This document shows, piece after piece, positions 1 to 9,966 of a DNA stretch of 9,966 bases. A program made the position numbers and the translations under genes. Source of the stretch: a virus; UHGV virus genome UHGV-2186022; one strand, given 5' to 3'. The first letter of the stretch is position 1. Each line of letters opens with the position of its first letter. The notes beneath the pieces are model-generated. The model ran no database searches, was not told the DNA's origin, and saw nothing but the letters and a program-made list of their open reading frames with translations.

Positions 1-282
1 TTACCGCCGTAACCGCTCCGGCTTCTTCCAGTGGTACGTAATTTTTGCTTTTTCCCTGTACGTCTGCACGCGGCGACGGTAGGCCAGCATTTCAAGAACG
101 CGGATCCGTATGTTGCGCATATCCACATCATTAAGCTGGATACCATCACGGCGCATCACCTCAGCAACAACACGCGCATAATTTTCGGCTGTCACGCTGT
201 CCGGCTGCGTGGCCTGTTCGTCAGTCTGCTGGCTGATTCCACCAGCACGGCGGATTAATCCCAGTATTTCGGCTTCTGTCAT
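1..282 (-). CDS. hypothetical protein (93 aa)
   Basis: ATG at 282-280 with a GGGGG Shine-Dalgarno-like motif 5 nt upstream on the minus strand; in-frame TAA at 3-1. The longer 1..480 track ORF would read through the cos-like element, so the internal start is preferred. No family recognised. Confidence 0.5.
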   Translation of the reverse strand: MTEAEILGLIRRAGGISQQTDEQATQPDSVTAENYARVVAEVMRRDGIQLNDVDMRNIRIRVLEMLAYRRRVQTYREKAKITYHWKKPERLRR

Positions 283-315
283 TGTGCCCCCATCGCTCTG
301 ATAGTCTGGTGTCGT

Positions 316-395
316 CGGGTCCTTCCTGGAATTATGGCCCGTTACGGGGCGACGACCTCGCGCGTTTTCACTATTTATGAAAATTTTTCGGGATC
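316..395 (+). other. lambda-type cos site, copy A (cosQ-side flank, cosN, start of cosB)
   Basis: Plus strand 341-395 reads GTTACG GGGCGACGACCT CGCGCGTTTTCACTATTTATGAAAATTTTTCGGG. This matches the recalled lambda right-end/left-end junction (GTTACG + GGGCGGCGACCTCGCGGGTTTTCGCTATTTATGAAAATTTTCCGG) with one mismatch in the 12-nt cohesive-end sequence (347-358). 316-324 CGGGTCCTT matches the lambda right-end ACGGGTCCTTTCCGG. Confidence 0.7.
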
Positions 396-494
396 CATGT
401 CCGGTTTCTCTGCAAGTTAACCATATGAAAAATATAAAAACATGCTTTCCATGAACCGGACATGCGCAAAAAACAGACACTAAAACCGGACATC
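396..494. repeat. three copies of a 12-bp motif CATGTCCGGTTT in the cosB position of cos A (candidate small-terminase binding sites)
   Basis: 396-407 CATGTCCGGTTT (forward); 453-464 GAACCGGACATG and 483-494 AAACCGGACATC (both reverse, 11/12 match). An A-tract-rich segment (408-452) lies between copies 1 and 2. Layout resembles lambda cosB (R sites plus IHF site) but the motif differs from the lambda CGTTTCC core. Confidence 0.45.
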
Positions 495-561
495 GAACCA
501 GTTAACCGAAAGTGTGCACAAATCACATGCATTGCTGCGAGTGATTAACAAGTTATCGGCT

Positions 562-996
562 TTACTGTTCTGTATCGGCTGATTGCTCCATGCTGGCACG
601 GCGAACGCTTACGGCATGACGCCACCCAGCCAGAAAGCCAGCCATTTTATTTCGTGCCTTGCTCACATCTTCCGGTGAATAGCCGTAAATCTGCAAACCT
701 TCATCAAATCGATGTTCTGTTTCTTCACTGGAGTACTCGTCACGCTCAGATGAAAGCAGCCTGGCAAACATAATTTTTTCCAGCGCACTGGTTTCTACGT
801 GATATCTGATGGCCTCAAGACGGCTTTTACCTGAAGACCAAAGCAATGTATGCCCGATGTGATAACCGCCAGACTTTCCGCGATCCGCATTAAGATACGG
901 CATCCCCTGTTTGGTCCATGCGCGAATAGTGGTTCTGTTAACCTTGAAATGTTCAGCTATTTCCTGCTGACTTACAAAACAAGCTTTATCAATCAT
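562..996 (-). CDS. Nu1-like small terminase subunit-like DNA-binding protein (144 aa)
   Basis: ATG at 996-994 with AAGG 8 nt upstream; TAA at 564-562. N-terminus VSQQEIAEHFKVNRTTIRAWTKQGMPY aligns by eye with lambda Nu1 KKQLADIFGASIRTIQNWQEQGMPV (winged HTH, GMP motif) followed by a GGKG-like G-rich loop. Shorter than Nu1 (181 aa). Sits between two cos copies. Confidence 0.55.
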   Translation of the reverse strand: MIDKACFVSQQEIAEHFKVNRTTIRAWTKQGMPYLNADRGKSGGYHIGHTLLWSSGKSRLEAIRYHVETSALEKIMFARLLSSERDEYSSEETEHRFDEGLQIYGYSPEDVSKARNKMAGFLAGWRHAVSVRRASMEQSADTEQ

Positions 997-1063
997 AATG
1001 TTACCTTAACTGCATGGTTAAATATTAATCAAGTGGTGGTGGTGTCACCTTCACGGAAAAACG

Positions 1064-1128
1064 TCATAAATAGCGAAAACCCACGAGGTCGCCGCCCCGT
1101 AACGGGTCCATATGCCGGAAAGGACCCG
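1064..1128 (-). other. lambda-type cos site, copy B (cosQ-like, cosN identical to lambda, truncated cosB)
   Basis: Minus strand reads ACGGGTCCTTTCCGGCATATGGACCCGTTACG GGGCGGCGACCT CGTGGGTTTTCGCTATTTATGA. The 12-mer at 1097-1086 is identical to the lambda cohesive end; first 15 nt match the lambda right end. About 85 percent identical to copy A over roughly 65 bp, in inverted orientation. Confidence 0.7.
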
Positions 1129-1129
1129 T

Positions 1130-1152
1130 AAAAAAAGCCGGATTTCTCCGGC
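1130..1152 (-). terminator. rho-independent terminator of the head operon
   Basis: On the minus strand, hairpin GCCGGAGAAATCCGGC (1152-1137) followed by TTTTTTT (1136-1130), 7 nt after the TGA of the 137-aa gene. Confidence 0.7.
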
Positions 1153-1158
1153 CTTATG

Positions 1159-1572
1159 TCAGATGGTTTTCAGTATGCGATCGACGTCGCCTTCATCGCC
1201 CTGGTTTCTGCCGTCGTATGCCATGCCGGGTGATACGGCTTTCGGGCTGTGCATGTCCATAAAGTTTTCAAAGGCTGCGGTAAGCTCCGGCGCAACCTTT
1301 GGGCGCTCCTGCTCTATGGTCATGTTCAGGATTTCACGAGCATTATCGACGCTAATACATGGCACGTTTGCCATTGCACGTAACAGCGGCTGATAGTCGT
1401 TATGTTCATGAAGCGCCATAATCGCATCAGCGCGCGGCTTGTCCTGCTCTTCCAGTTTGTTGAGTTGATATACGGCCTCGTAGGTTGATAAACCTCTGTC
1501 AGCCATTGCCCGCGCTTCTGCTTTAAATTTACTCGCCAGCGGTAGCGCCATGATGCTTTCATTCGTTGCCAT
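1159..1572 (-). CDS. hypothetical protein (137 aa), last gene of the head operon
   Basis: ATG at 1572-1570 with AGCAGGGGAAACG upstream (SD GGGG); TGA at 1161-1159; 12-bp gap after the D-like gene. No family recognised; position after the capsid genes suggests a head-assembly or packaging accessory role (inference only). Confidence 0.6.
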   Translation of the reverse strand: MATNESIMALPLASKFKAEARAMADRGLSTYEAVYQLNKLEEQDKPRADAIMALHEHNDYQPLLRAMANVPCISVDNAREILNMTIEQERPKVAPELTAAFENFMDMHSPKAVSPGMAYDGRNQGDEGDVDRILKTI

Positions 1573-1584
1573 CGTTTCCCCTGC

Positions 1585-1920
1585 TTATCGCGCCAGCGGC
1601 TGAACGGATACGCCAGAACCCGCAAAGGCGGCGCATTTTTTCGCGTCAGTGTCGGCGCTCTCAGGCCAGTTTACGGCGGCGATATTAAATATCCCCGTCT
1701 TGTAACACTGTGCTGATTTCTGCTTTGACGTGTCCACGGGGTACGAGGTCAGATAAACAGCCTTCCCAGATTCCTGACCATCCCACGGCTTAAACTCGCC
1801 ATTGTCCGCCAGCATCAGCGGGGTAAATTCCTGAATAACGCCAGCATCAGCGGCAAAATGTACCAGCGTCGTGGATACCTGCTGACTGCCTGCAAATAAC
1901 TCAATGTATGGAGTGTCCAT
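1585..1920 (-). CDS. head decoration protein, lambda gpD-like (111 aa)
   Basis: ATG at 1920-1918 with GGGGGA SD; TAA at 1587-1585. By-eye alignment to lambda gpD: TPLML, WDG, YK(T/S)G(I/T)F, WPE(S/A)A and C-terminal KK..AFAG(S/T)..S(V/I) shared. Confidence 0.8.
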   Translation of the reverse strand: MDTPYIELFAGSQQVSTTLVHFAADAGVIQEFTPLMLADNGEFKPWDGQESGKAVYLTSYPVDTSKQKSAQCYKTGIFNIAAVNWPESADTDAKKCAAFAGSGVSVQPLAR

Positions 1921-3395: not shown

Positions 3396-3504
3396 ATCTG
3401 CCTGCAAAGATGTCGAACGAAAATTAACCACAACCATCATCTTTTTTGCATCAAAACAATTAAAAACAATAAATTACGCTCATGATGATGATGACGATAA
3501 AATC

Positions 3505-3570
3505 ACAAAAATGCGCTTTTTTCCGCGCCTCCCGCCCCGTGTTCAGGCCCACCCCGCCAGGAGGACCCGT
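3505..3570 (-). other. degenerate third cos-like copy (copy C)
   Basis: Minus strand reads ACGGGTCCTCCTGGCGGGGTGGGCCTGAACACGGGGCGGGAGGCGCGG, alignable to copy B (ACGGGTCCTTTCCGG...GTTACGGGGCGGCGACCTCG) at roughly 70 percent. The cosN-equivalent 12-mer is degraded. Confidence 0.4.
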
Positions 3571-3592
3571 AAAAAAGCCGGATTGCTCCAGC
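3571..3592 (-). terminator. rho-independent terminator of the SSB-like operon
   Basis: Minus-strand hairpin GCTGGAGCAATCCGGC (3592-3577, one G-T wobble) followed by TTTTTT (3576-3571), 16 nt after the TAA of the SSB-like gene. Near-identical to the 1130-1152 terminator. Confidence 0.65.
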
Positions 3593-3608
3593 TTCTGTCA
3601 CTCGTCGC

Positions 3609-3977
3609 TTAAAACGGTATGTTATCCCCGTACGGATCATCATTCCCCGCCTGTTGTTTTGCCCTGTTCAGCGCGTCAGTAGCCTGGCCCTGTTGACCTT
3701 TTTTGCCGCCCAGTCGCGCCGTTCGCGCACTGATTACACTGTCTGCGATAACCTGCCAGCCCTGCCGCGTTTCTCCGTTCTGCCCAGTCCACTGGCTGAT
3801 CTGCATGTTACCCGCCACGCTCAGGAGTTCACCCTTGCGGTGCCTTTCCAGTGCTTCGGCCTGGCTGCACGGAAGGGGGGCCGCCATACGCGCCAGCGTC
3901 ATCGGTGTGCCCTTGCTGGTCTGTTTTACCTGCGGGTCGTCCACCAGCCGCCCGTAAGCTGCTATCTGTGCTGTCAT
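3609..3977 (-). CDS. short SSB-like protein (122 aa) with C-terminal ..DNIPF tail
   Basis: ATG at 3977-3975 with GGAGAGG SD; TAA at 3611-3609. N-terminus [25 protein letters not shown] resembles E. coli SSB [41 protein letters not shown] resembles TRKWTDQSGQDRYTTEV; C-terminus [11 protein letters not shown] resembles the SSB acidic tip DFDDDIPF. The middle of the OB fold appears shortened. Confidence 0.6.
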   Translation of the reverse strand: [122 protein letters not shown]

Positions 3978-4506: not shown

Positions 4507-6321
4507 TTAATTTTTGCTGTCGTCATTTGTGACCGATGCACATGATGGCATCCAGTCTTCTGAATCCTCTGTCAGTGTCACATTTGAACGCAAACCGTGC
4601 TTCGTTTTCCGTTTTATATACTCCCTGCCATATTCCGCCATTGCCCCCGGCATATCTTTACCGAAGCGCGTCAGTGTTACAGGTTTACCGAATCCGTGTG
4701 CCCTCATATATGCCAGATAGGCGTGATAAAGATACCTGCGCGGACTGAACGGAATAATTTCGGCATTACCCACTAACAGACCATCACACATTACCGACGA
4801 CATGAGATAGCCACAGAAGTCCACCAGCGAATCGCCCTCGCGTTTTATCACCAGAGCTTCTTCTGATTTCTGCTGCTCATACAGCAGGCGTTTAGCTTCG
4901 TCCTGGTCAGAAAAACGAGTAAGCAGATGGCGAATCACAACCGCCAGCTCTCCTTCTATTTTTTCTGCCAGCATGGGGTCGCGCTCGTTCTCCGGTACAA
5001 CCTCCGAAAAATTGAATATCACCCGACGACGTGAGATCCCCCCGCTGCGGTCACTGAATGACATGGCGTTATTGTTCACCGCCAGCACGACCGCCTGAAT
5101 GCGTGTTGAGTAGGGGGCTTTATGCTTCGGGTCGATTGCCACCTTGTCACCGCCTGTAATGGCCTTAATTCCTGCGCCATCACCAGCGTAGCGGGTCATA
5201 TCCGGCATGATAATCAGCGAAAAGCCAACCACTAACGCGCGTTCCCTTGCATCTTCCAGCGCCTTCATGCTTGCCGATACTGTGTTGGCCTTACCCGCCA
5301 GCATGGTGCAAATCTCCGCCATCACGCTTTTACCACTTCCCCCTGGACCTGTTACCTCAATGAATAACTGCCAGTCGTACCGGTTCGCCAGCACCATGAA
5401 TAATGCAGCCAGCACGCGATCCGTCTTGCGGTCATTCTCTGCCACCGAGCAGCGTAACCACTTCCAGAAATTCGGCGCATGTGTTGCCAGCGTTTCCCCC
5501 TCTGCTGGTGGGCTGAAAGGTAATTCACTGGCAATTAACAACCAGTCGTTTTTGTTATGCTCCCGAAAATTACCTGTTCTGGTATCAAATACCCCGTTAC
5601 TGAATCCAATCAGGTTACGGGCTGTATTCCCCATTACAGGCAAACTTAACTTCATGGTATCGACCGCCGATTTAATGGCGTTCTGCGAATAGCTGATCTC
5701 CGCATCAATGAAAATCTGCGCCATAGCACGCTGTAACTCTTTATCCTGAATCGGCTCCCATACAACGCCGTTGTAATGGTGAACAGTGTCAGAGTCGGCA
5801 TGAATCGCCAGTTCACCGCCATAATGTGCCAGGAGAACTTCGCCGCGCTGGCTTGCTCCCATCTGGTTAAGCGCCAGTGGTGCGGCGCTGTCTTCTGTTT
5901 TTTTCTTAACAGGAAGCTGAATCACCAGACCATCAGAAAGATTCTGGCGCTCACGGGCCAGATATTCGCGCCAGTTCTGCACCTCCTGGCCGTGCATACC
6001 CTCAGGATAAAAATTTGCATCCTGTACGCCTGCCGCCGCCAGCTTCTGACCAATCGCCTTTATCATTACTGGCGCAAGATATCCGGCCCTGAATATGCGC
6101 ACGGATTTTCTGCCTTCCGGCACAATTTGCAGCTTATCCAGTTCGGATAACTGCTGCTCCCCAAGCCACACAGGAGGCTCATTATCTCCGGCCATACGCG
6201 CGTCATGTTCCTGCCATTGTTTTGCGTGTGACCAGGCATCACTACCCGCAAAAATAATGACTTCTGTTTCTTTGTGTTTTATGCCGCGTGACTGCTGTTT
6301 TACGTTCGGTGCCAGTTTCAT
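4507..6321 (-). CDS. primase-helicase, P4-alpha/D5 family C-terminal domain type (604 aa)
   Basis: ATG at 6321-6319 with AGGGGG SD; TAA at 4509-4507. Walker A GPGGSGKS within EVTGPGGSGKSVMAEICTMLAGK, and the overall layout is typical of satellite and plasmid primase-helicase proteins. Confidence 0.85.
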   Translation of the reverse strand: MKLAPNVKQQSRGIKHKETEVIIFAGSDAWSHAKQWQEHDARMAGDNEPPVWLGEQQLSELDKLQIVPEGRKSVRIFRAGYLAPVMIKAIGQKLAAAGVQDANFYPEGMHGQEVQNWREYLARERQNLSDGLVIQLPVKKKTEDSAAPLALNQMGASQRGEVLLAHYGGELAIHADSDTVHHYNGVVWEPIQDKELQRAMAQIFIDAEISYSQNAIKSAVDTMKLSLPVMGNTARNLIGFSNGVFDTRTGNFREHNKNDWLLIASELPFSPPAEGETLATHAPNFWKWLRCSVAENDRKTDRVLAALFMVLANRYDWQLFIEVTGPGGSGKSVMAEICTMLAGKANTVSASMKALEDARERALVVGFSLIIMPDMTRYAGDGAGIKAITGGDKVAIDPKHKAPYSTRIQAVVLAVNNNAMSFSDRSGGISRRRVIFNFSEVVPENERDPMLAEKIEGELAVVIRHLLTRFSDQDEAKRLLYEQQKSEEALVIKREGDSLVDFCGYLMSSVMCDGLLVGNAEIIPFSPRRYLYHAYLAYMRAHGFGKPVTLTRFGKDMPGAMAEYGREYIKRKTKHGLRSNVTLTEDSEDWMPSCASVTNDDSKN

Positions 6322-6605
6322 TTTTTACCCCCTGCGACCAGCATTTCACGAATTTTGCGGATATGACTTGCTGCACGTTTCTGATTTACGGCTTTACGAT
6401 GGCCCACCAGCGTGAAATCACGCCGGAACTGATAAACAGGCATCACGCAGTCATATTCGTAGCCATCACGGCGGTAAGTGATGCGCCGTTCTGCCACGCC
6501 TTTTATCGTTACCGTGCCGCCATAGTTATCCCGGAAAATATCGCCGGGGCGGATTTCAGGCCGAGCGGGGCCGCTGGCAGTAAAGCCAGAATTTTTATTT
6601 TTCAT
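6318..6605 (-). CDS. hypothetical protein (95 aa)
   Basis: ATG at 6605-6603; stop overlaps the primase start (ATGA). Weak SD. No family recognised. Confidence 0.55.
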   Translation of the reverse strand: MKNKNSGFTASGPARPEIRPGDIFRDNYGGTVTIKGVAERRITYRRDGYEYDCVMPVYQFRRDFTLVGHRKAVNQKRAASHIRKIREMLVAGGKK

Positions 6606-6610
6606 GGTTT

Positions 6611-6838
6611 TTATTCCGCGTTTATTTTTTTATCGTGAATTTCGATCGCTTTATTTAATTCGACGATTACCGTATCGAGTAATGAAATAAACGCACCAGC
6701 AAGATTAGACTCACGCTCATCTTCCGGCGCATCACTTAAACCATTAAGCCAGATAAGAAATATTTGCCTCAAACATTCACTGTTAGTCAGTGCGTTTTCT
6801 GCATGGCTCATTGATTTAAAATAACGGTCATCATGCAT
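6611..6838 (-). CDS. hypothetical protein (75 aa from internal ATG; track ORF extends to 6883)
   Basis: ATG at 6838-6836 with AAGGGG 7 nt upstream; overlaps the stop of the upstream gene by 8 nt. The longer form from 6883 has no comparable SD. Confidence 0.5.
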   Translation of the reverse strand: MHDDRYFKSMSHAENALTNSECLRQIFLIWLNGLSDAPEDERESNLAGAFISLLDTVIVELNKAIEIHDKKINAE

Positions 6839-7067
6839 GGTGCGCCCCTTGAATATCTGCGGTAAGAATTTTGCCTGCCTCATTCAGCGCCATATCAGCA
6901 CTAAGTTGCATAACAGCCAGTGAGTGAGGAACGAAAGCCCCGGCATATTCTGTTTCGCTGGTGGCGTGCTTATGCGCCTTGTCTGCGATAACAGAAATAT
7001 CAATCAGCGCGTGCATCAGCGTTTTGATGGCTTCGGCGGCTGCGTCCGGACGGGTGTTATTGCACAT
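6831..7067 (-). CDS. hypothetical protein (78 aa)
   Basis: ATG at 7067-7065 with AGGGGG SD; TGA at 6833-6831. No family recognised. Confidence 0.55.
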   Translation of the reverse strand: MCNNTRPDAAAEAIKTLMHALIDISVIADKAHKHATSETEYAGAFVPHSLAVMQLSADMALNEAGKILTADIQGAHHA

Positions 7068-7263
7068 GGCGTACCCCCTGACGAATACGGGCAGCGAATA
7101 CCATCACGCAGCCATCAGGAGATTGCTGACGCGCTTCCTGTTCGCTGGTGGCCTCAATGGTAATCACGCGCGGTTGTGCCGTGCTCAGGGCGATAAAACG
7201 CCAGATGTATTTATTCAGGTTGTACGAGTCCCGCCCTTGCGGGTGTGTGGTATGATTTCTCAT
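7057..7263 (-). CDS. hypothetical protein (68 aa), first gene of the operon ending in the primase
   Basis: ATG at 7263-7261 with GAGG 6 nt upstream; TAA at 7059-7057. It is the 3-prime part of the 316-aa track ORF; only this part has a credible start. Confidence 0.5.
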   Translation of the reverse strand: MRNHTTHPQGRDSYNLNKYIWRFIALSTAQPRVITIEATSEQEARQQSPDGCVMVFAARIRQGVRHVQ

Positions 7264-7360
7264 AGCTGCCTCGATACTTTCGCTATCGTTGGTGGTTAGA
7301 AGCCCGTTGGTGTTGGTAGCACCTGCGGGCTTTGTCTTTTCATCGATTACCTCAACAAAG

Positions 7361-7441
7361 GTGTCAGCCACTATACTAGTAACAGGTGTCAGCCACGTCA
7401 ATAGTGTTTTTCCATTTTCTTGTGTGTATACTGTCAGCCAC
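7361..7441. promoter_or_regulatory. triple direct-repeat operator in the divergent promoter region
   Basis: GTGTCAGCCAC at 7361-7371 and 7386-7396, TGTCAGCCAC at 7432-7441. TATACT hexamers abut copy 1 (7373-7378) and copy 3 (7426-7431). Lies between divergent starts at 7263 (minus) and 7463 (plus). Confidence 0.5.
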
Positions 7442-7462
7442 CTAATAACAAGGAAATCAGAT

Positions 7463-7642
7463 ATGGCAACGAAAGCAGTTAATGGAAAATCCAAAAAACT
7501 TGAGGCACGAGTCCCCCATGCAATAGCTGACGCTGTAGAAAATTTAAAGGAAGAAGGCGAAAGCACTGGGCAATTTATCGTTTCGGCACTTGAAGGCGAG
7601 ATCAAACGCCGCCAGCGCCGCAAGGCCAAAGAGCAGGAGTAA
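7463..7642 (+). CDS. small ribbon-helix-helix-like DNA-binding protein (59 aa), candidate regulator
   Basis: ATG at 7463 with AAGGAAA SD; TAA at 7640-7642. KLEARVPHAIADAVENLKEEGESTGQFIVSALEGEIKRR fits an RHH pattern (beta-strand LEARVP, helix A, G-x-S/T loop, helix B) with a basic tail. Fold assignment is by eye. Confidence 0.55.
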   Translation: MATKAVNGKSKKLEARVPHAIADAVENLKEEGESTGQFIVSALEGEIKRRQRRKAKEQE

Positions 7643-7684
7643 CCATCACCAGCGCCGTGGTGTAAGGTATTACGGCGCATTGCT

Positions 7685-7873
7685 ATGCAGGACAACACAA
7701 TGACCGATAAAGAATTGACCAAAACATTATCACCGGCACGGAAAAGACGGCGCAGAAAGATAGAGCATGAATCAGAAAGATTCGCGCCATGTGCTTTTGC
7801 CCTTGAGCAATTCCTTAAAGAGTACAGGGAAAAGCGCTCATTGCAGGTATGGCAACGAACTGAACCAGACTGA
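7685..7873 (+). CDS. hypothetical basic protein (62 aa; alternative ATG at 7700)
   Basis: ORF with RKRRRRK basic stretch; weak SD for either start; TGA at 7871-7873; followed by a terminator. Confidence 0.35.
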   Translation: MQDNTMTDKELTKTLSPARKRRRRKIEHESERFAPCAFALEQFLKEYREKRSLQVWQRTEPD

Positions 7874-7968
7874 TTGCATTGCCCACCAGCCTGATAGCGG
7901 CTATCATCCCCGTGCTTATGTTTGGGATCATATACACATAAGGCGCAGCGGGTTAATTGTTCAGAAAG

Positions 7969-7995
7969 GCGGCTCCATATCGGGGCCGCTTTTTT
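7969..7995 (+). terminator. rho-independent terminator between convergent genes
   Basis: Stem GCGGCTCC (7969-7976) and GGGGCCGC (7982-7989), 5-nt loop, TTTTTT (7990-7995). The alpA stop is at 8022 on the other strand. Confidence 0.6.
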
Positions 7996-8021
7996 CGTGT
8001 TTGTCATATCTGTGATACCCG

Positions 8022-8724: not shown

Positions 8725-9966
8725 CTACACGGCTCGGATACCCCTTTTACCACTGGCGAGGGTTACGCCCGTCGCCGCAGCCTCGACAAATTCGCCCCAC
8801 CAGCGCATCAGCACGATGCGTTTTTCTATGTAGTTGCTCCGGTTGTATGCCCGTCTAACTTCGTTGGTGTCGACGTGGGCAAGTGCCGCCTCTATTACGT
8901 CCGGCTCGAATCCTTCCTCGTTCGCTGCTGTGCTGAATATGGCGCGTAATCCATGAGACACCAGCACGCCAGCGAATCCCATACGCCGCAATGCTGCGTT
9001 AGCTGTCTGGCTGTTCATCGGCTGCTGTGGGTCTTTCAGACTTGGGAAAACGTAATTGCGGTGGTGGCTGATTGGTTTCATGGCCTCCAGCACCGCCATA
9101 GCCTGACCGGAAAGCGGGATAACGTGATCCCTGCGCATCTTCATGCGTCCGGCAGGTATCGTCCATTGCTTCGCGTCCAGGTTGATTTCATCCCACCGCG
9201 TTGATGACGCTTCGGCGGGACGGGTTACGGTCAGTAACTGCCATTCAATCAGTAATCTGGTCTGCCGTTCTGTTGCCGATACTGATAAAGCCTGCATAAG
9301 CTCGGGCAGCTGTTCGGGGCGGATTGTTGGCATATGTTTTTTTACAGGTGAGGGAAACGCCTTACGCACATTCATAGCCGGATTGGCATCAATCAGCCCA
9401 CTGTTGGCGGCGTAATCCATTACCTCATTAACGCGCTGTAAAACCCGTTTGAGTGTTTCCAGGTTGCCGCGCTCCTTGATGGGGGTAAGCACCTCAACGA
9501 ACCTGCGAGCGGTCAGGGTGTCTATTGGGGTGTTGCCGATGAACGGGAATACATATTTATCCAGCGATCGCCAGATGTCTTTAATCGTGTTGGGGGCCAG
9601 ATTCTGGCTGATTTTCACCTGGTACCATGCCGCCGCCACATTTTCGAACGTGTTCCCTTGTCTTCGGGCCTCTGCCTCTCGTTTTTTCTTCTCATGGCCC
9701 TGCGGGTCAGTTCCGGCACTGATTAACGCTCTGTACTCGCTACGGCGTTTTCTGGCATCAGCCAGGGAAACATCATCAAGCGATCCAAAACTCAGCAATA
9801 TTCTTTTTTTGTCCGATGGCCGGTAGTAGGAAAATCGCCAGAGTTTTGATCCGGACGGTTTGACCAGGAGAAAAAGCCCTCCGCCGTCCTGTAGGGTGTA
9901 TTCCTTTTCCGCTGGTCTGGCTGCTTTGATCTGCACCGTGGTTAATGGGGGTGTTTTTCTCGCCAT
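8725..9966 (-). CDS. int: tyrosine site-specific integrase, P4 type (413 aa)
   Basis: ATG at 9966-9964 (window edge); TAG at 8727-8725. N-terminus LTTVQIKAARPAEKEYTLQDGGGLFLLVKPSGSKLWRFSYY is the characteristic P4-integrase arm-binding region. C-terminal catalytic elements present: TVTRPAEA (Arg), HGLRAIFSTAA (H-x-x-R), HVDTNEVRRAYNRSNY (Tyr region). Confidence 0.95.
   Translation of the reverse strand: MARKTPPLTTVQIKAARPAEKEYTLQDGGGLFLLVKPSGSKLWRFSYYRPSDKKRILLSFGSLDDVSLADARKRRSEYRALISAGTDPQGHEKKKREAEARRQGNTFENVAAAWYQVKISQNLAPNTIKDIWRSLDKYVFPFIGNTPIDTLTARRFVEVLTPIKERGNLETLKRVLQRVNEVMDYAANSGLIDANPAMNVRKAFPSPVKKHMPTIRPEQLPELMQALSVSATERQTRLLIEWQLLTVTRPAEASSTRWDEINLDAKQWTIPAGRMKMRRDHVIPLSGQAMAVLEAMKPISHHRNYVFPSLKDPQQPMNSQTANAALRRMGFAGVLVSHGLRAIFSTAANEEGFEPDVIEAALAHVDTNEVRRAYNRSNYIEKRIVLMRWWGEFVEAAATGVTLASGKRGIRAV

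Follow-up and report, generated by a model that had tools for sequence, protein, structure and literature searches.

The window analysed here, the whole 9,966-nt stretch of UHGV virus genome UHGV-2186022, holds near its left end a 144-aa gene on the minus strand, rppA, that is bracketed by two lambda-type cos sites. The cos1–rppA–cos2 arrangement is the already published packaging-hijack system of EcCICFT073, a satellite island of E. coli whose cos1 and cos2 were published by Fillol-Salom (ISME J 2018, PMC6092414; Mol Cell 2019, PMC6739421). Since the module matches that system, the finding is a correct rediscovery of a known one. The sole new lead is that cos2 resembles the packaging signal of another prophage family, one that is very common, as sequence comparison suggests. 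The features referred to throughout are as follows.

312..531, plus strand: cos2, with a cosQ-like element, cosN and a phage-type cosB; 213/218 to the OCR-read sequence labelled 'EcCICFT073 cos2' in Fig. S1A of PMC6739421
317..326, plus strand: cosQ-like element of cos2, GGGTCCTTCC, which aligns to lambda cosQ
347..358, plus strand: cosN of cos2, GGGCGACGACCT, where position 6 is A in place of the G of lambda and CFT073
390..493, plus strand: cos2 cosB containing three R-like repeats; differs from the PhiR12_1 cosB at one position in 104
396-406: cos2 repeat CATGTCCGGTT, inverted
454-464: cos2 repeat AACCGGACATG
484-493: cos2 repeat AACCGGACAT
562..996, minus strand: rppA (redirecting phage packaging protein A, 144 aa), identical to CFT073 c1503
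913..1132, minus strand: cos1, with a cosQ-like element, cosN and an RppA-TerS-specific cosB; 214/219 to the OCR-read 'EcCICFT073 cos1' of the same figure (PMC6739421)
916..1056, minus strand: experimentally defined cos1 cosB, placed by the 3' parts of primers phi80quimera-cosB-3m (1035-1056) and -4c (916-937)
1033..1045, minus strand: ACACCACCACCAC block, then TTGATTAAT; conserved almost without change in every Rpp type's cos1 cosB
1086..1097, minus strand: cosN of cos1, GGGCGGCGACCT, identical to lambda
1117..1127, minus strand: cosQ-like element of cos1, GGGTCCTTTCC, placed by the lambda alignment and an eight-locus cos1 alignment
1130..1155, minus strand: hairpin and T-run (fold -15.7 kcal/mol, z = -3.4; GCCGGA/TCCGGC stem, then seven T)
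4507-6321: D5-type primase (Pfam match)
8725-9966: integrase (Pfam match)

Results

Two lambda-type cos sites in inverted orientation

A repeat search identified inverted arms at 316-393 (plus strand) and 1051-1128 (minus strand), 78 nt long, 79% complementary and 657 nt apart. Each arm contains a lambda-like cosQ and cosN, and GTTACG lies 5' of both cosN 12-mers. Local alignment with the circularised lambda cos gave 64/74 identical positions (score 84) for cos2 and 70/77 (score 102) for cos1; the scores of 300 shuffles averaged about 17 to 18 (sd about 2) and peaked at 24 to 29. Both alignments include cosQ (GGGTCCTT(T)CC) and cosN, extend about 40 nt further right and end before lambda R3. 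The R3/R2/R1 elements of lambda (CGTTTCC-type) were absent from cos1 and cos2, and the IHF consensus was not enriched, with no occurrence in the cos2 cosB.

An earlier, sequence-only reading had described two opposed lambda-type cos sites around the 144-aa gene, and the repeat search and the lambda alignments, scoring well above every shuffle, bear this out. The exact lambda 12-mer at 1097-1086 on the minus strand and its one-mismatch copy at 347-358 on the plus strand read as described, and the distance from the upstream cosN to the start codon, put at about 90 bp, measured 89 nt (1085..997). That reading was also right that both copies are real cos sites and that the downstream copy carries a repeat-rich, cosB-like region, the repeats being 10-11 nt long. 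Its assignment of roles needs correcting: the repeat-rich copy is the dispensable cos2, and the copy upstream of the gene is cos1.

The EcCICFT073 packaging system

Over window positions 1-1600, 1532/1596 positions are identical to CFT073 (about 4% nucleotide divergence), and the gene order int-alpA-pri-...-capsid-decoration-137aa-rppA-93aa is common to both; this comparison was verified in three independent ways. The RppA translation matches CFT073 C_RS07025 (= c1503) at 145/145 positions (144 residues plus stop), and the c1503 primers of PMC6739421 match the window exactly at 588-633 and 637-685. The backbone typical of a phage-inducible chromosomal island (PICI; an integrase, an AlpA-type regulator, a primase/replicase, mostly a single gene direction and about 11 kb) is present: Pfam matches place the integrase and the D5-type primase, and the gene at the alpA position is annotated as an HTH regulator (context in EcPF5 and CFT073). 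We are highly confident that the module is the packaging module of an EcCICFT073-family PICI.

The published work on EcCICFT073 established that island transfer requires phage terS and that RppA binds TerS (PMC6092414, PMC6739421), contacting TerS residues 1-98 and redirecting the protein to the island's own cos (PMC6739421). Together, cos1 and RppA drive transfer by lambda and phage 80 (PMC6092414, PMC6739421). RppA stimulates transfer of cos1 only and not of cos2, the cos1 cosB is sufficient in chimeras, and moving the cos1 cosB segment into phage 80 made phage 80 packaging RppA-dependent (PMC6739421). Plasmid transfer is supported by either site, so both are functional; island transfer is reduced by deletion of cos1, raised by deletion of cos2, and abolished by the double deletion (PMC6092414).

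According to the published mechanism, RppA and the small terminase of a lambda/80-type helper would form a heterocomplex whose hybrid DNA-binding domain would stop reading the phage cosB and would read the cos1 cosB (916-1056, minus strand) instead. The helper large terminase would then nick the cosN at 1086-1097, whose sequence is that of lambda, and helper capsids would be filled leftwards from the island concatemer, with phage packaging blocked. These steps were published for CFT073 and are transferred to the window because of the sequence identity; helper-dependent transfer needing RppA, phage TerS and cos1 is assumed for the window on the same grounds. The earlier proposal that a helper-type cosN next to a Nu1-like factor of the island's own marks packaging hijack agrees with the mechanism published for this element (PMC6739421), and the accompanying speculation about packaging in either direction fits the published functionality of both sites. 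A further suggestion, of a decoy or abortive site, holds solely in that cos2 deletion raises lambda-mediated transfer; the published work found cos2 to be functional.

Organization of cos1

Packaging begun at cos1 runs leftwards through rppA, and the cos1 cosB overlaps both the region upstream of rppA, which is likely its promoter, and the first rppA codons. This cosB is short and unremarkable, and its segment 997-1060 had no match among 50,697 phage records. When eight cos1 regions taken from RppA, RppB and Klebsiella-type loci are aligned, the GGGTCCTT cosQ block is invariant, and the same alignment defines the conservation of the ACACCACCACCAC block, which may be an RppA-TerS recognition element, the -35 region of rppA, or both. 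A sigma-70 scan upstream of rppA gave weak 9/12 matches at best. The hairpin at 1130..1155, which abuts the cosQ of cos1, is likely the intrinsic terminator of the upstream 137-aa gene, and a consensus terminator scan did not flag it.

The cosB of cos2 matches a widespread prophage family

Published work called the cos2 cosB "completely divergent" (PMC6092414, PMC6739421). We found that window positions 315-493 are 92.7% identical to the PhiR12 phages. Compared with the E2348/69 prophage, the cos2 cosB has 14 mismatches in 104 positions, none of them within the repeats (Fisher one-sided p = 0.004); that prophage retains the three repeats at exactly the same spacing, and the spacers have diverged. 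In both PhiR12 and E2348/69 the cos2-like cosB lies directly upstream of the Nu1 gene (Nu1-A in PhiR12). The PhiR12-type cosB plus Nu1 (at least 80% query coverage, most sampled matches being full length) occurs in 1149/5426 complete E. coli genomes, about one in five. A megablast count of places per genome, used as a proxy for the island and PhiR12-type prophages occurring together, returned 226 genomes instead of about 1,100, because megablast misses cosB copies of about 87% identity such as that of E2348/69. The natural helper of CFT073, phi4, has a third, 21-like cosB type, and the known resident helper is therefore not one that cos2 matches.

The Nu1 of PhiR12 aligns with lambda Nu1 in its C-terminal half only; since the N-terminal half is unaligned, the TerS of this family may escape RppA. 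The cos2 cosB may be a working copy of a PhiR12/E2348-69-type cosB whose repeats would be recognised by the 169-aa Nu1 of these phages, and such phages could package the island straight from cos2 with their own terminase and without RppA. Packaging begun at cos2 would run rightwards and cross rppA in antisense. These comparisons suggest that cos2 provides an RppA-independent route through a second helper family. Two routes into capsids would then exist, an RppA-redirected terminase at cos1 (lambda/80/21-type helpers) and cos mimicry at cos2 (PhiR12/E2348-69). Counting against the PhiR12 route is a possible effect on nicking of the G-to-A change in the cosN of cos2 in the window, the one base that differs from CFT073 within the stretch compared (310-394). 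The same GGGCGACGACCT variant forms the upstream cosN in one further locus (L029) and is also found in another (L010).

Among the IMG/VR loci, the two-cos inverted layout is found in 19/19 with RppA and 3/3 with RppB, so that both copies are conserved in all 22 E. coli loci of these types; Klebsiella-type Rpp islands had no second cos. RppB islands have a different cosN type at both sites, and locus L025 has a G6T change at both cosN. The cos2 cosB varies among islands whose rppA is 89-100% identical, and the cos1 cosB is constant. The other cos2 variant, with GGTTGTTGT repeats, was seen in only 46 genomes and had no match in the phage collection, and a general rule that cos2 always copies a phage cosB was rejected on these grounds. 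Scans of a species-representative genome collection with the single protein and with a 13-sequence alignment retrieved no Rpp loci; the cross-species survey therefore rests on the IMG/VR loci and one Klebsiella look-up. The E. coli PICIs of this family would carry a swappable cassette of the form cos - cosB(x) - specificity gene - cosB(y) - inverted cos.

We tentatively favor, at somewhat below even odds, a joint reading in which cos2 is a working PhiR12/E2348-69 signal, the island has two capsid routes, the cassette is swappable and the convergent layout permits the two sites to coexist. A rather unlikely alternative is that cos2 has no adaptive role, being a leftover of phage cos capture that acts as a mildly costly competing or abortive initiation site and is kept similar to cos1 by gene conversion. 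Deletion of cos2 raises lambda-mediated transfer significantly and phage 80 transfer slightly (PMC6092414), as a costly site would predict, and cos2 is not stimulated by RppA (PMC6739421). The upstream-only cos of the Klebsiella-type islands points the same way, and the cosN variants common to both sites in L025 and the RppB islands could reflect arm-to-arm gene conversion. A useless site that lowers transfer would, however, be expected to decay or vanish, and the second site is present throughout the 22 E. coli loci. The repeats of its cosB remain unbroken, with the same sequence as in a living phage family, even as the spacers drift, and that position has received different cosB types by exchange.

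Orientation of the two sites

In lambda, termination needs cosQ and cosN to be encountered in the forward direction. A second site in direct orientation would thus terminate packaging, deleting or duplicating the 740-bp rppA segment between the sites. Inverted orientation would let the two cos sites coexist, as textbook lambda biology predicts that an inverted site is passed through and does not act as a terminator.

The inverted repeats had also raised the idea that the segment 381-1063 is invertible and flips rppA as a switch. The length and 79% identity of the arms would allow this, and the cos-terS-cos modules of two related PICIs, L005 and L006, lie in opposite orientations relative to the same backbone genes. 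We nevertheless consider such a switch very improbable. Scored relative to the decoration, 137-aa and 93-aa genes, rpp has one orientation in 22/22 flanked IMG/VR loci plus EcPF5 and CFT073 (24/24), and at least 80% of window 1-1600 aligns collinearly in 64 complete genomes. There is no adjacent invertase gene, the only recombinase being the island integrase 7.7 kb away. The L005 and L006 modules themselves differ in sequence, with terS products 57% identical and different cosB types, so cassette replacement seems likelier than switching.

RppA and the small terminases

The window protein matches RppC (PDB 6hlk) with E = 5e-31. Its translation contains R21, T22, R25, K29, L51 and F121, the residues that PMC6739421 names; in alignment A1 all are invariant except L51, which is nearly so. 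The sequence-only reading had called the gene a Nu1-like small terminase. The N-terminal winged-HTH resemblance holds, as residues 7-47 match the small-terminase family phrog_57 (E = 4e-8), but the gene is rppA and not a small terminase. The match to the DNA-binding domain of lambda gpNu1 (1j9i) is weak (E = 0.13), no terminase family was found in Pfam at E = 0.01, and the rest of TerS gave no detectable match. Genuine TerS proteins match phrog_57 from profile positions of about 8-12 to about 189-193, and those of PhiR12, L005 and L006 match it end to end and match phrog_1790 in addition. A comparison of RppA with the TerS encoded by the PICI L006 detected no similarity (E = 1.4), and there is therefore no support for a recent descent of Rpp from that TerS. 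It is extremely improbable that the protein is a self-sufficient small terminase recruiting helper TerL to the island cos, like SaPI TerS: its phrog_57 match and its position just 3' of a cos, as for Nu1, would fit, but only the DNA-binding region matches, and the requirement of EcCICFT073 transfer for phage terS, with a 100% identical RppA, refutes a small-terminase identity genetically (PMC6092414, PMC6739421).

Discussion

The Rpp module is textbook-level satellite biology, in which one small protein lets a pathogenicity island steal the terminase of its helper phage. If cos2 does serve a different helper family, islands of this kind hedge across phage packaging specificities, and a wider set of prophages could spread them, a point of relevance for their spread among uropathogenic and other E. 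coli. Convergent cos sites would then also offer a simple design rule for engineered dual-helper cosmids or PICI delivery vehicles. A literature search that took in few subscription journals turned up nothing on cos1/cos2 or the PhiR12 phages after the 2018/2019 papers, which makes this a weak negative.

Comparison with known systems

EcCICFT073 has an identical RppA, the same cos1 and cos2 positions, orientations and cosB sequences, the same flanking genes and the same island backbone. It differs by one base in the cosN of cos2 and two bases in the cos1 core. The insertion site is tqsA in the closest complete genomes, as opposed to between phoQ and roxA for EcCICFT073.

Over cosQ, cosN and the adjoining 40 nt or so on the right, the lambda cos is 86-91% identical to the window sites, but lambda has one site with R3/R2/R1 and the window has two converging sites without them. 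Lambda gpNu1 and RppA have the winged-HTH region in common, with no detectable match of RppA to the rest of TerS.

The PhiR12/E2348-69-type cos (PV340549-PV340554; NC_011601 at about 746,200) has three CATGTCCGGTT-type repeats at spacing identical to that of cos2. In these phages the cos is followed by Nu1 and A, whereas the island cos2 runs into the 3' end of rppA. The similarity stops right after the last repeat, and the cosQ-cosN core is less alike than the cosB.

The terS-carrying PICIs (E. coli JNE151685 and AVS0093; L005, L006) have the same backbone and two inverted cos sites around one packaging-specificity gene. L005 and L006 encode a full-length TerS instead of rpp, have cosB types that are 21/phi4-like, lambda-like or GGTGGTGGT-type, and differ from each other in module orientation relative to the backbone. 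Cos-type SaPIs (SaPIbov5; SaPIbov4, with two putative cos) and satellite P4 likewise carry a helper-type cos for the helper terminase (PMC6092414; 10.1101/2022.09.08.507074), but they lack an Rpp-like redirector, and their sequences are unrelated.

Results

The island and its RppA

The window consists entirely of a phage-inducible chromosomal island (PICI) that codes for a tyrosine integrase, a D5-type primase, an SSB-like protein, and lambda E-like capsid and lambda D-like decoration proteins, with nearly all genes on one strand, and the same island is found inside tqsA in complete E. coli genomes. The 144-aa protein encoded between the two cos copies matched the crystal structure "Redirecting phage packaging protein C (RppC)" (E = 5e-31) and agreed at 145/145 translated positions (144 residues plus the stop) with the product of CFT073 C_RS07025, which is c1503, the rppA gene of island EcCICFT073. 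CFT073 is identical to window 1-1600 at 1532 of 1596 positions, with gene order unchanged, and the published c1503 mutagenesis primers match the window exactly. The sequence-only reading had taken this gene for a Nu1-like small terminase. The N-terminus is indeed Nu1-like, but the match to the Nu1-type family is confined to residues 7-47, whereas the small terminases of phage PhiR12 and two related islands match it end to end; RppA is therefore not a small terminase.

Three lambda-type head proteins, namely a major capsid protein resembling E, a decoration protein resembling D and one of 137 aa, are encoded consecutively (1159-1572, 1585-1920 and 1932-2987, all minus strand). The 137-aa protein matches solely the C-terminal end of a head-maturation-protease family (phrog_53 positions 494-567, E = 1.5e-9), the location of the lambda Nu3 scaffold. 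Capsid genes of Gram-negative PICIs are known and have been reported to be dispensable for transfer, and no mention of a scaffold-like partner was found alongside those reported (10.1101/2022.07.18.500453). A conserved 93-aa ORF (1-282, minus strand; phrog_1561) always lies immediately outside cos2, at the island end, and varies much more (74-100% nucleotide identity) than the adjoining rppA of the same loci. The 316-aa ORF listed at 7057-8007 (minus strand) is probably not a real gene; in the annotated relatives the corresponding stretch is occupied by a number of short genes, located on either strand (Icd-like, YlcI/YnfO-like, hypothetical). At the other end lies the integrase (8725-9966, minus strand). 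As related loci L002 and L054 show, near-identical packaging modules occupy different integration sites, tqsA in EcPF5 versus, in CFT073 and JNE151685, the phoQ-roxA interval, which indicates that the packaging and integration ends of the island reassort.

Two inverted cos sites flank rppA

Packaging features of the window
347-358, plus strand: cosN of copy A (cos2), reading GGGCGACGACCT, GTTACG just before
1097-1086, minus strand: cosN of copy B (cos1), reading GGGCGGCGACCT, GTTACG just before
316-393 and 1051-1128: arms of a 78-nt inverted repeat, 79% complementary, enclosing both cos
562-996, minus strand: rppA, the 144-aa ORF between the two copies
312-531, plus strand: published cos2 (copy A), 213/218 identical to Fig. 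S1A
1132-913, minus strand: published cos1 (copy B), 214/219 identical to Fig. S1A

The 12-mers, their GTTACG flanks and the inverted repeat confirm the earlier proposal of two lambda-type cos sites bracketing a gene in inverted orientation. The lambda ends were fetched, joined into one cos region and aligned to each copy, with 300 shuffles as control. Copy A was identical to lambda cos at 64/74 positions (score 84) and copy B at 70/77 (score 102), whereas the shuffled sequences averaged ~17 to 18 (sd ~2) and peaked at 24 to 29. Both alignments cover cosQ (GGGTCCTT(T)CC), cosN and ~40 nt rightward, and stop short of lambda R3. The repeat-rich region noticed beside copy A consists of three 10-11-nt repeats of CATGTCCGGTT type to the right of its cosN, and the spacing of about 90 bp between copy B cosN and the rppA start codon was measured as 89 nt.

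The feature is thus real and was correctly read, but it has already been described and experimentally dissected: EcCICFT073 has two named sites, cos1 and cos2 (Fillol-Salom et al., ISME J 2018, PMC6092414; Mol Cell 2019, PMC6739421), whose sequences we read from Fig. S1A by OCR and mapped to the window. Each enables plasmid transfer by lambda and phage 80; RppA binds the small terminase of the phage, prevents phage packaging and increases plasmid transfer from cos1 but not from cos2, and in chimeras the cos1 cosB alone suffices for this effect (PMC6092414, PMC6739421). Window 916-1056 is the counterpart of the cosB segment that the authors transplanted into phage 80. They called both EcCICFT073 cosB regions "completely divergent" from phage cosB (PMC6092414, PMC6739421). 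A literature search, largely of work outside subscription journals, found no later work on the two EcCICFT073 sites.

The cos2 cosB resembles that of PhiR12-type phages

BLAST of 300-1160 against 50,697 phage records returned many short matches to the cosQ-cosN core, plus five phages (PhiR12_1 to PhiR12_5) that match window 315-493 at 92.7%; in these phages the matched stretch is the true cos and lies just ahead of Nu1 and A. Within cosB (390-493), cos2 and PhiR12_1 differ by 1 mismatch in 104, closer than in the cosQ-cosN core, and the likeness ends immediately past the last repeat. The cos1 cosB had no match among the phage records. Of 5426 complete E. coli genomes, 1149 carried PhiR12-type cosB plus Nu1 at a query coverage of at least 80%; in an even sample of 25 matches, about 20 were full length. 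Between the window and the E2348/69 cosB copy there are 14 mismatches in 104 positions and no indels. Since none of these mismatches falls in the three repeats (0/32, versus 14/72 outside; Fisher one-sided p = 0.004), the repeats are the conserved units, and the island copy has retained them. The 169-aa Nu1 of the PhiR12 family aligns to lambda Nu1 in the C-terminal half only (46% over 92 residues); TerS residues 1-98 take part in the published RppC complex (PMC6739421).

Both cos sites are kept in related E. coli islands

An IMG/VR survey gave 24 Rpp loci at 70% protein identity or above. All 19 RppA loci extending far enough keep both copies, with one cos lying ~100 nt upstream of rpp and the other, inverted, ~220-240 nt downstream. 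The cos1 cosB is conserved among the surveyed loci, ACACCACCACCAC then TTGATTAAT being near-invariant across all Rpp types. The cos2 cosB, among islands with 89-100% identical RppA, takes two unrelated forms, the PhiR12 type and a GGTTGTTGT-repeat type. The latter is present in 46 E. coli genomes and matched nothing in the phage collection, so mimicry of phage cosB by cos2 is not a general rule, and we rejected the idea that it always occurs.

Features of related islands
L015-L017, L019, L020, L022-L025, ~3433-3640, minus strand: alternative cos2 cosB, three GGTTGTTGT-type repeats
L026-L028, ~2880-2940 and ~3600-3690: RppB cos-like sites (IMG/VR)
L005 (E. coli JNE151685), 6017-7040, and L006 (AVS0093), 6001-6942: terS modules, terS of 194 or 180 aa

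The layout of the alternative cosB resembles that upstream of the L006 island-encoded terS (GGTGGTGGT / ACACCAACC / GGTTGGTGT). In locus L025, both cosN (2900, plus; 3670, minus) carry an identical G-to-T change at position 6 (GGGCGTCGACCT), which suggests either that gene conversion has acted across the inverted arms or that the two sites have adapted jointly to a single helper. Two inverted cos-like sites likewise occur in the three RppB loci, with another cosN type at both: cosQ (GGGTCCTT) and a CGCTATTTATGA block are retained, and the cosN position reads CACCGGGGGTA...CGCGCAAAAACGCGC. The sole match to this region in the phage collection (71 nt, 79%) lies under a Nu1-like gene of "phage SerU-LTIIb", a 10-kb record. 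Klebsiella-type loci have the upstream cos only. In two E. coli islands of the same backbone, full-length terS replaces rpp, with inverted cos on both sides and a lambda-like or 21-like second cosB; these two terS differ in their N-terminal parts and are almost identical in their C-terminal halves.

Discussion

The steps published for EcCICFT073 can be transferred to the window by sequence identity. RppA and helper TerS would read the cos1 cosB, helper TerL would then cut cosN, and the island would be packaged and the phage blocked; cos2 would be functional without stimulation by RppA. The packaging hijack proposed earlier, by a helper-type cosN and an own TerS-like factor, agrees with this published system, whose RppA is identical.

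The convergent orientation probably makes two cos sites tolerable, a reading that draws on established lambda biology. Because packaging is polar and termination requires cosQ and cosN, not cosB (PMC6739421, introduction), a directly oriented second site would be cut at termination. The 740-bp rppA segment would thereby be lost or duplicated, as happens in lambda cos-duplication phages. An inverted second site would be approached from the wrong side and passed, and packaging from either cos1 or cos2 would take in the entire island.

The chief alternative to a helper-serving role of cos2, proposed below, is that this site is a relic, neutral or mildly harmful. Island transfer is lowered by deletion of cos1, raised by deletion of cos2 (significantly for lambda) and abolished by the double deletion (PMC6092414, PMC6739421); the rise is consistent with a relic, as is the lack of a second site in Klebsiella islands, but that site is present in 22/22 E. 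coli loci and its repeats are intact. The suggestion that the segment is invertible is not supported, as rpp points the same way with respect to its decoration, 137-aa and 93-aa neighbours in 22/22 flanked IMG/VR loci, EcPF5 and CFT073, 64 complete genomes are collinear across at least 80% of window 1-1600, and no invertase gene lies near the module. The sole flip is that of the L005 and L006 terS modules, which are opposite relative to the backbone; as they are unlike in sequence, they are more simply explained by replacement of a cassette through recombination inside the cos cores.

The role of cos2 is the modest, testable lead left on the second-cos question. From its cosB sequence, cos2 may directly serve PhiR12 / E2348-69-type helpers. 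In CFT073 the known helper is phi4, whose cosB is of a third, 21-like kind, as compared to the PhiR12-type cosB of cos2.
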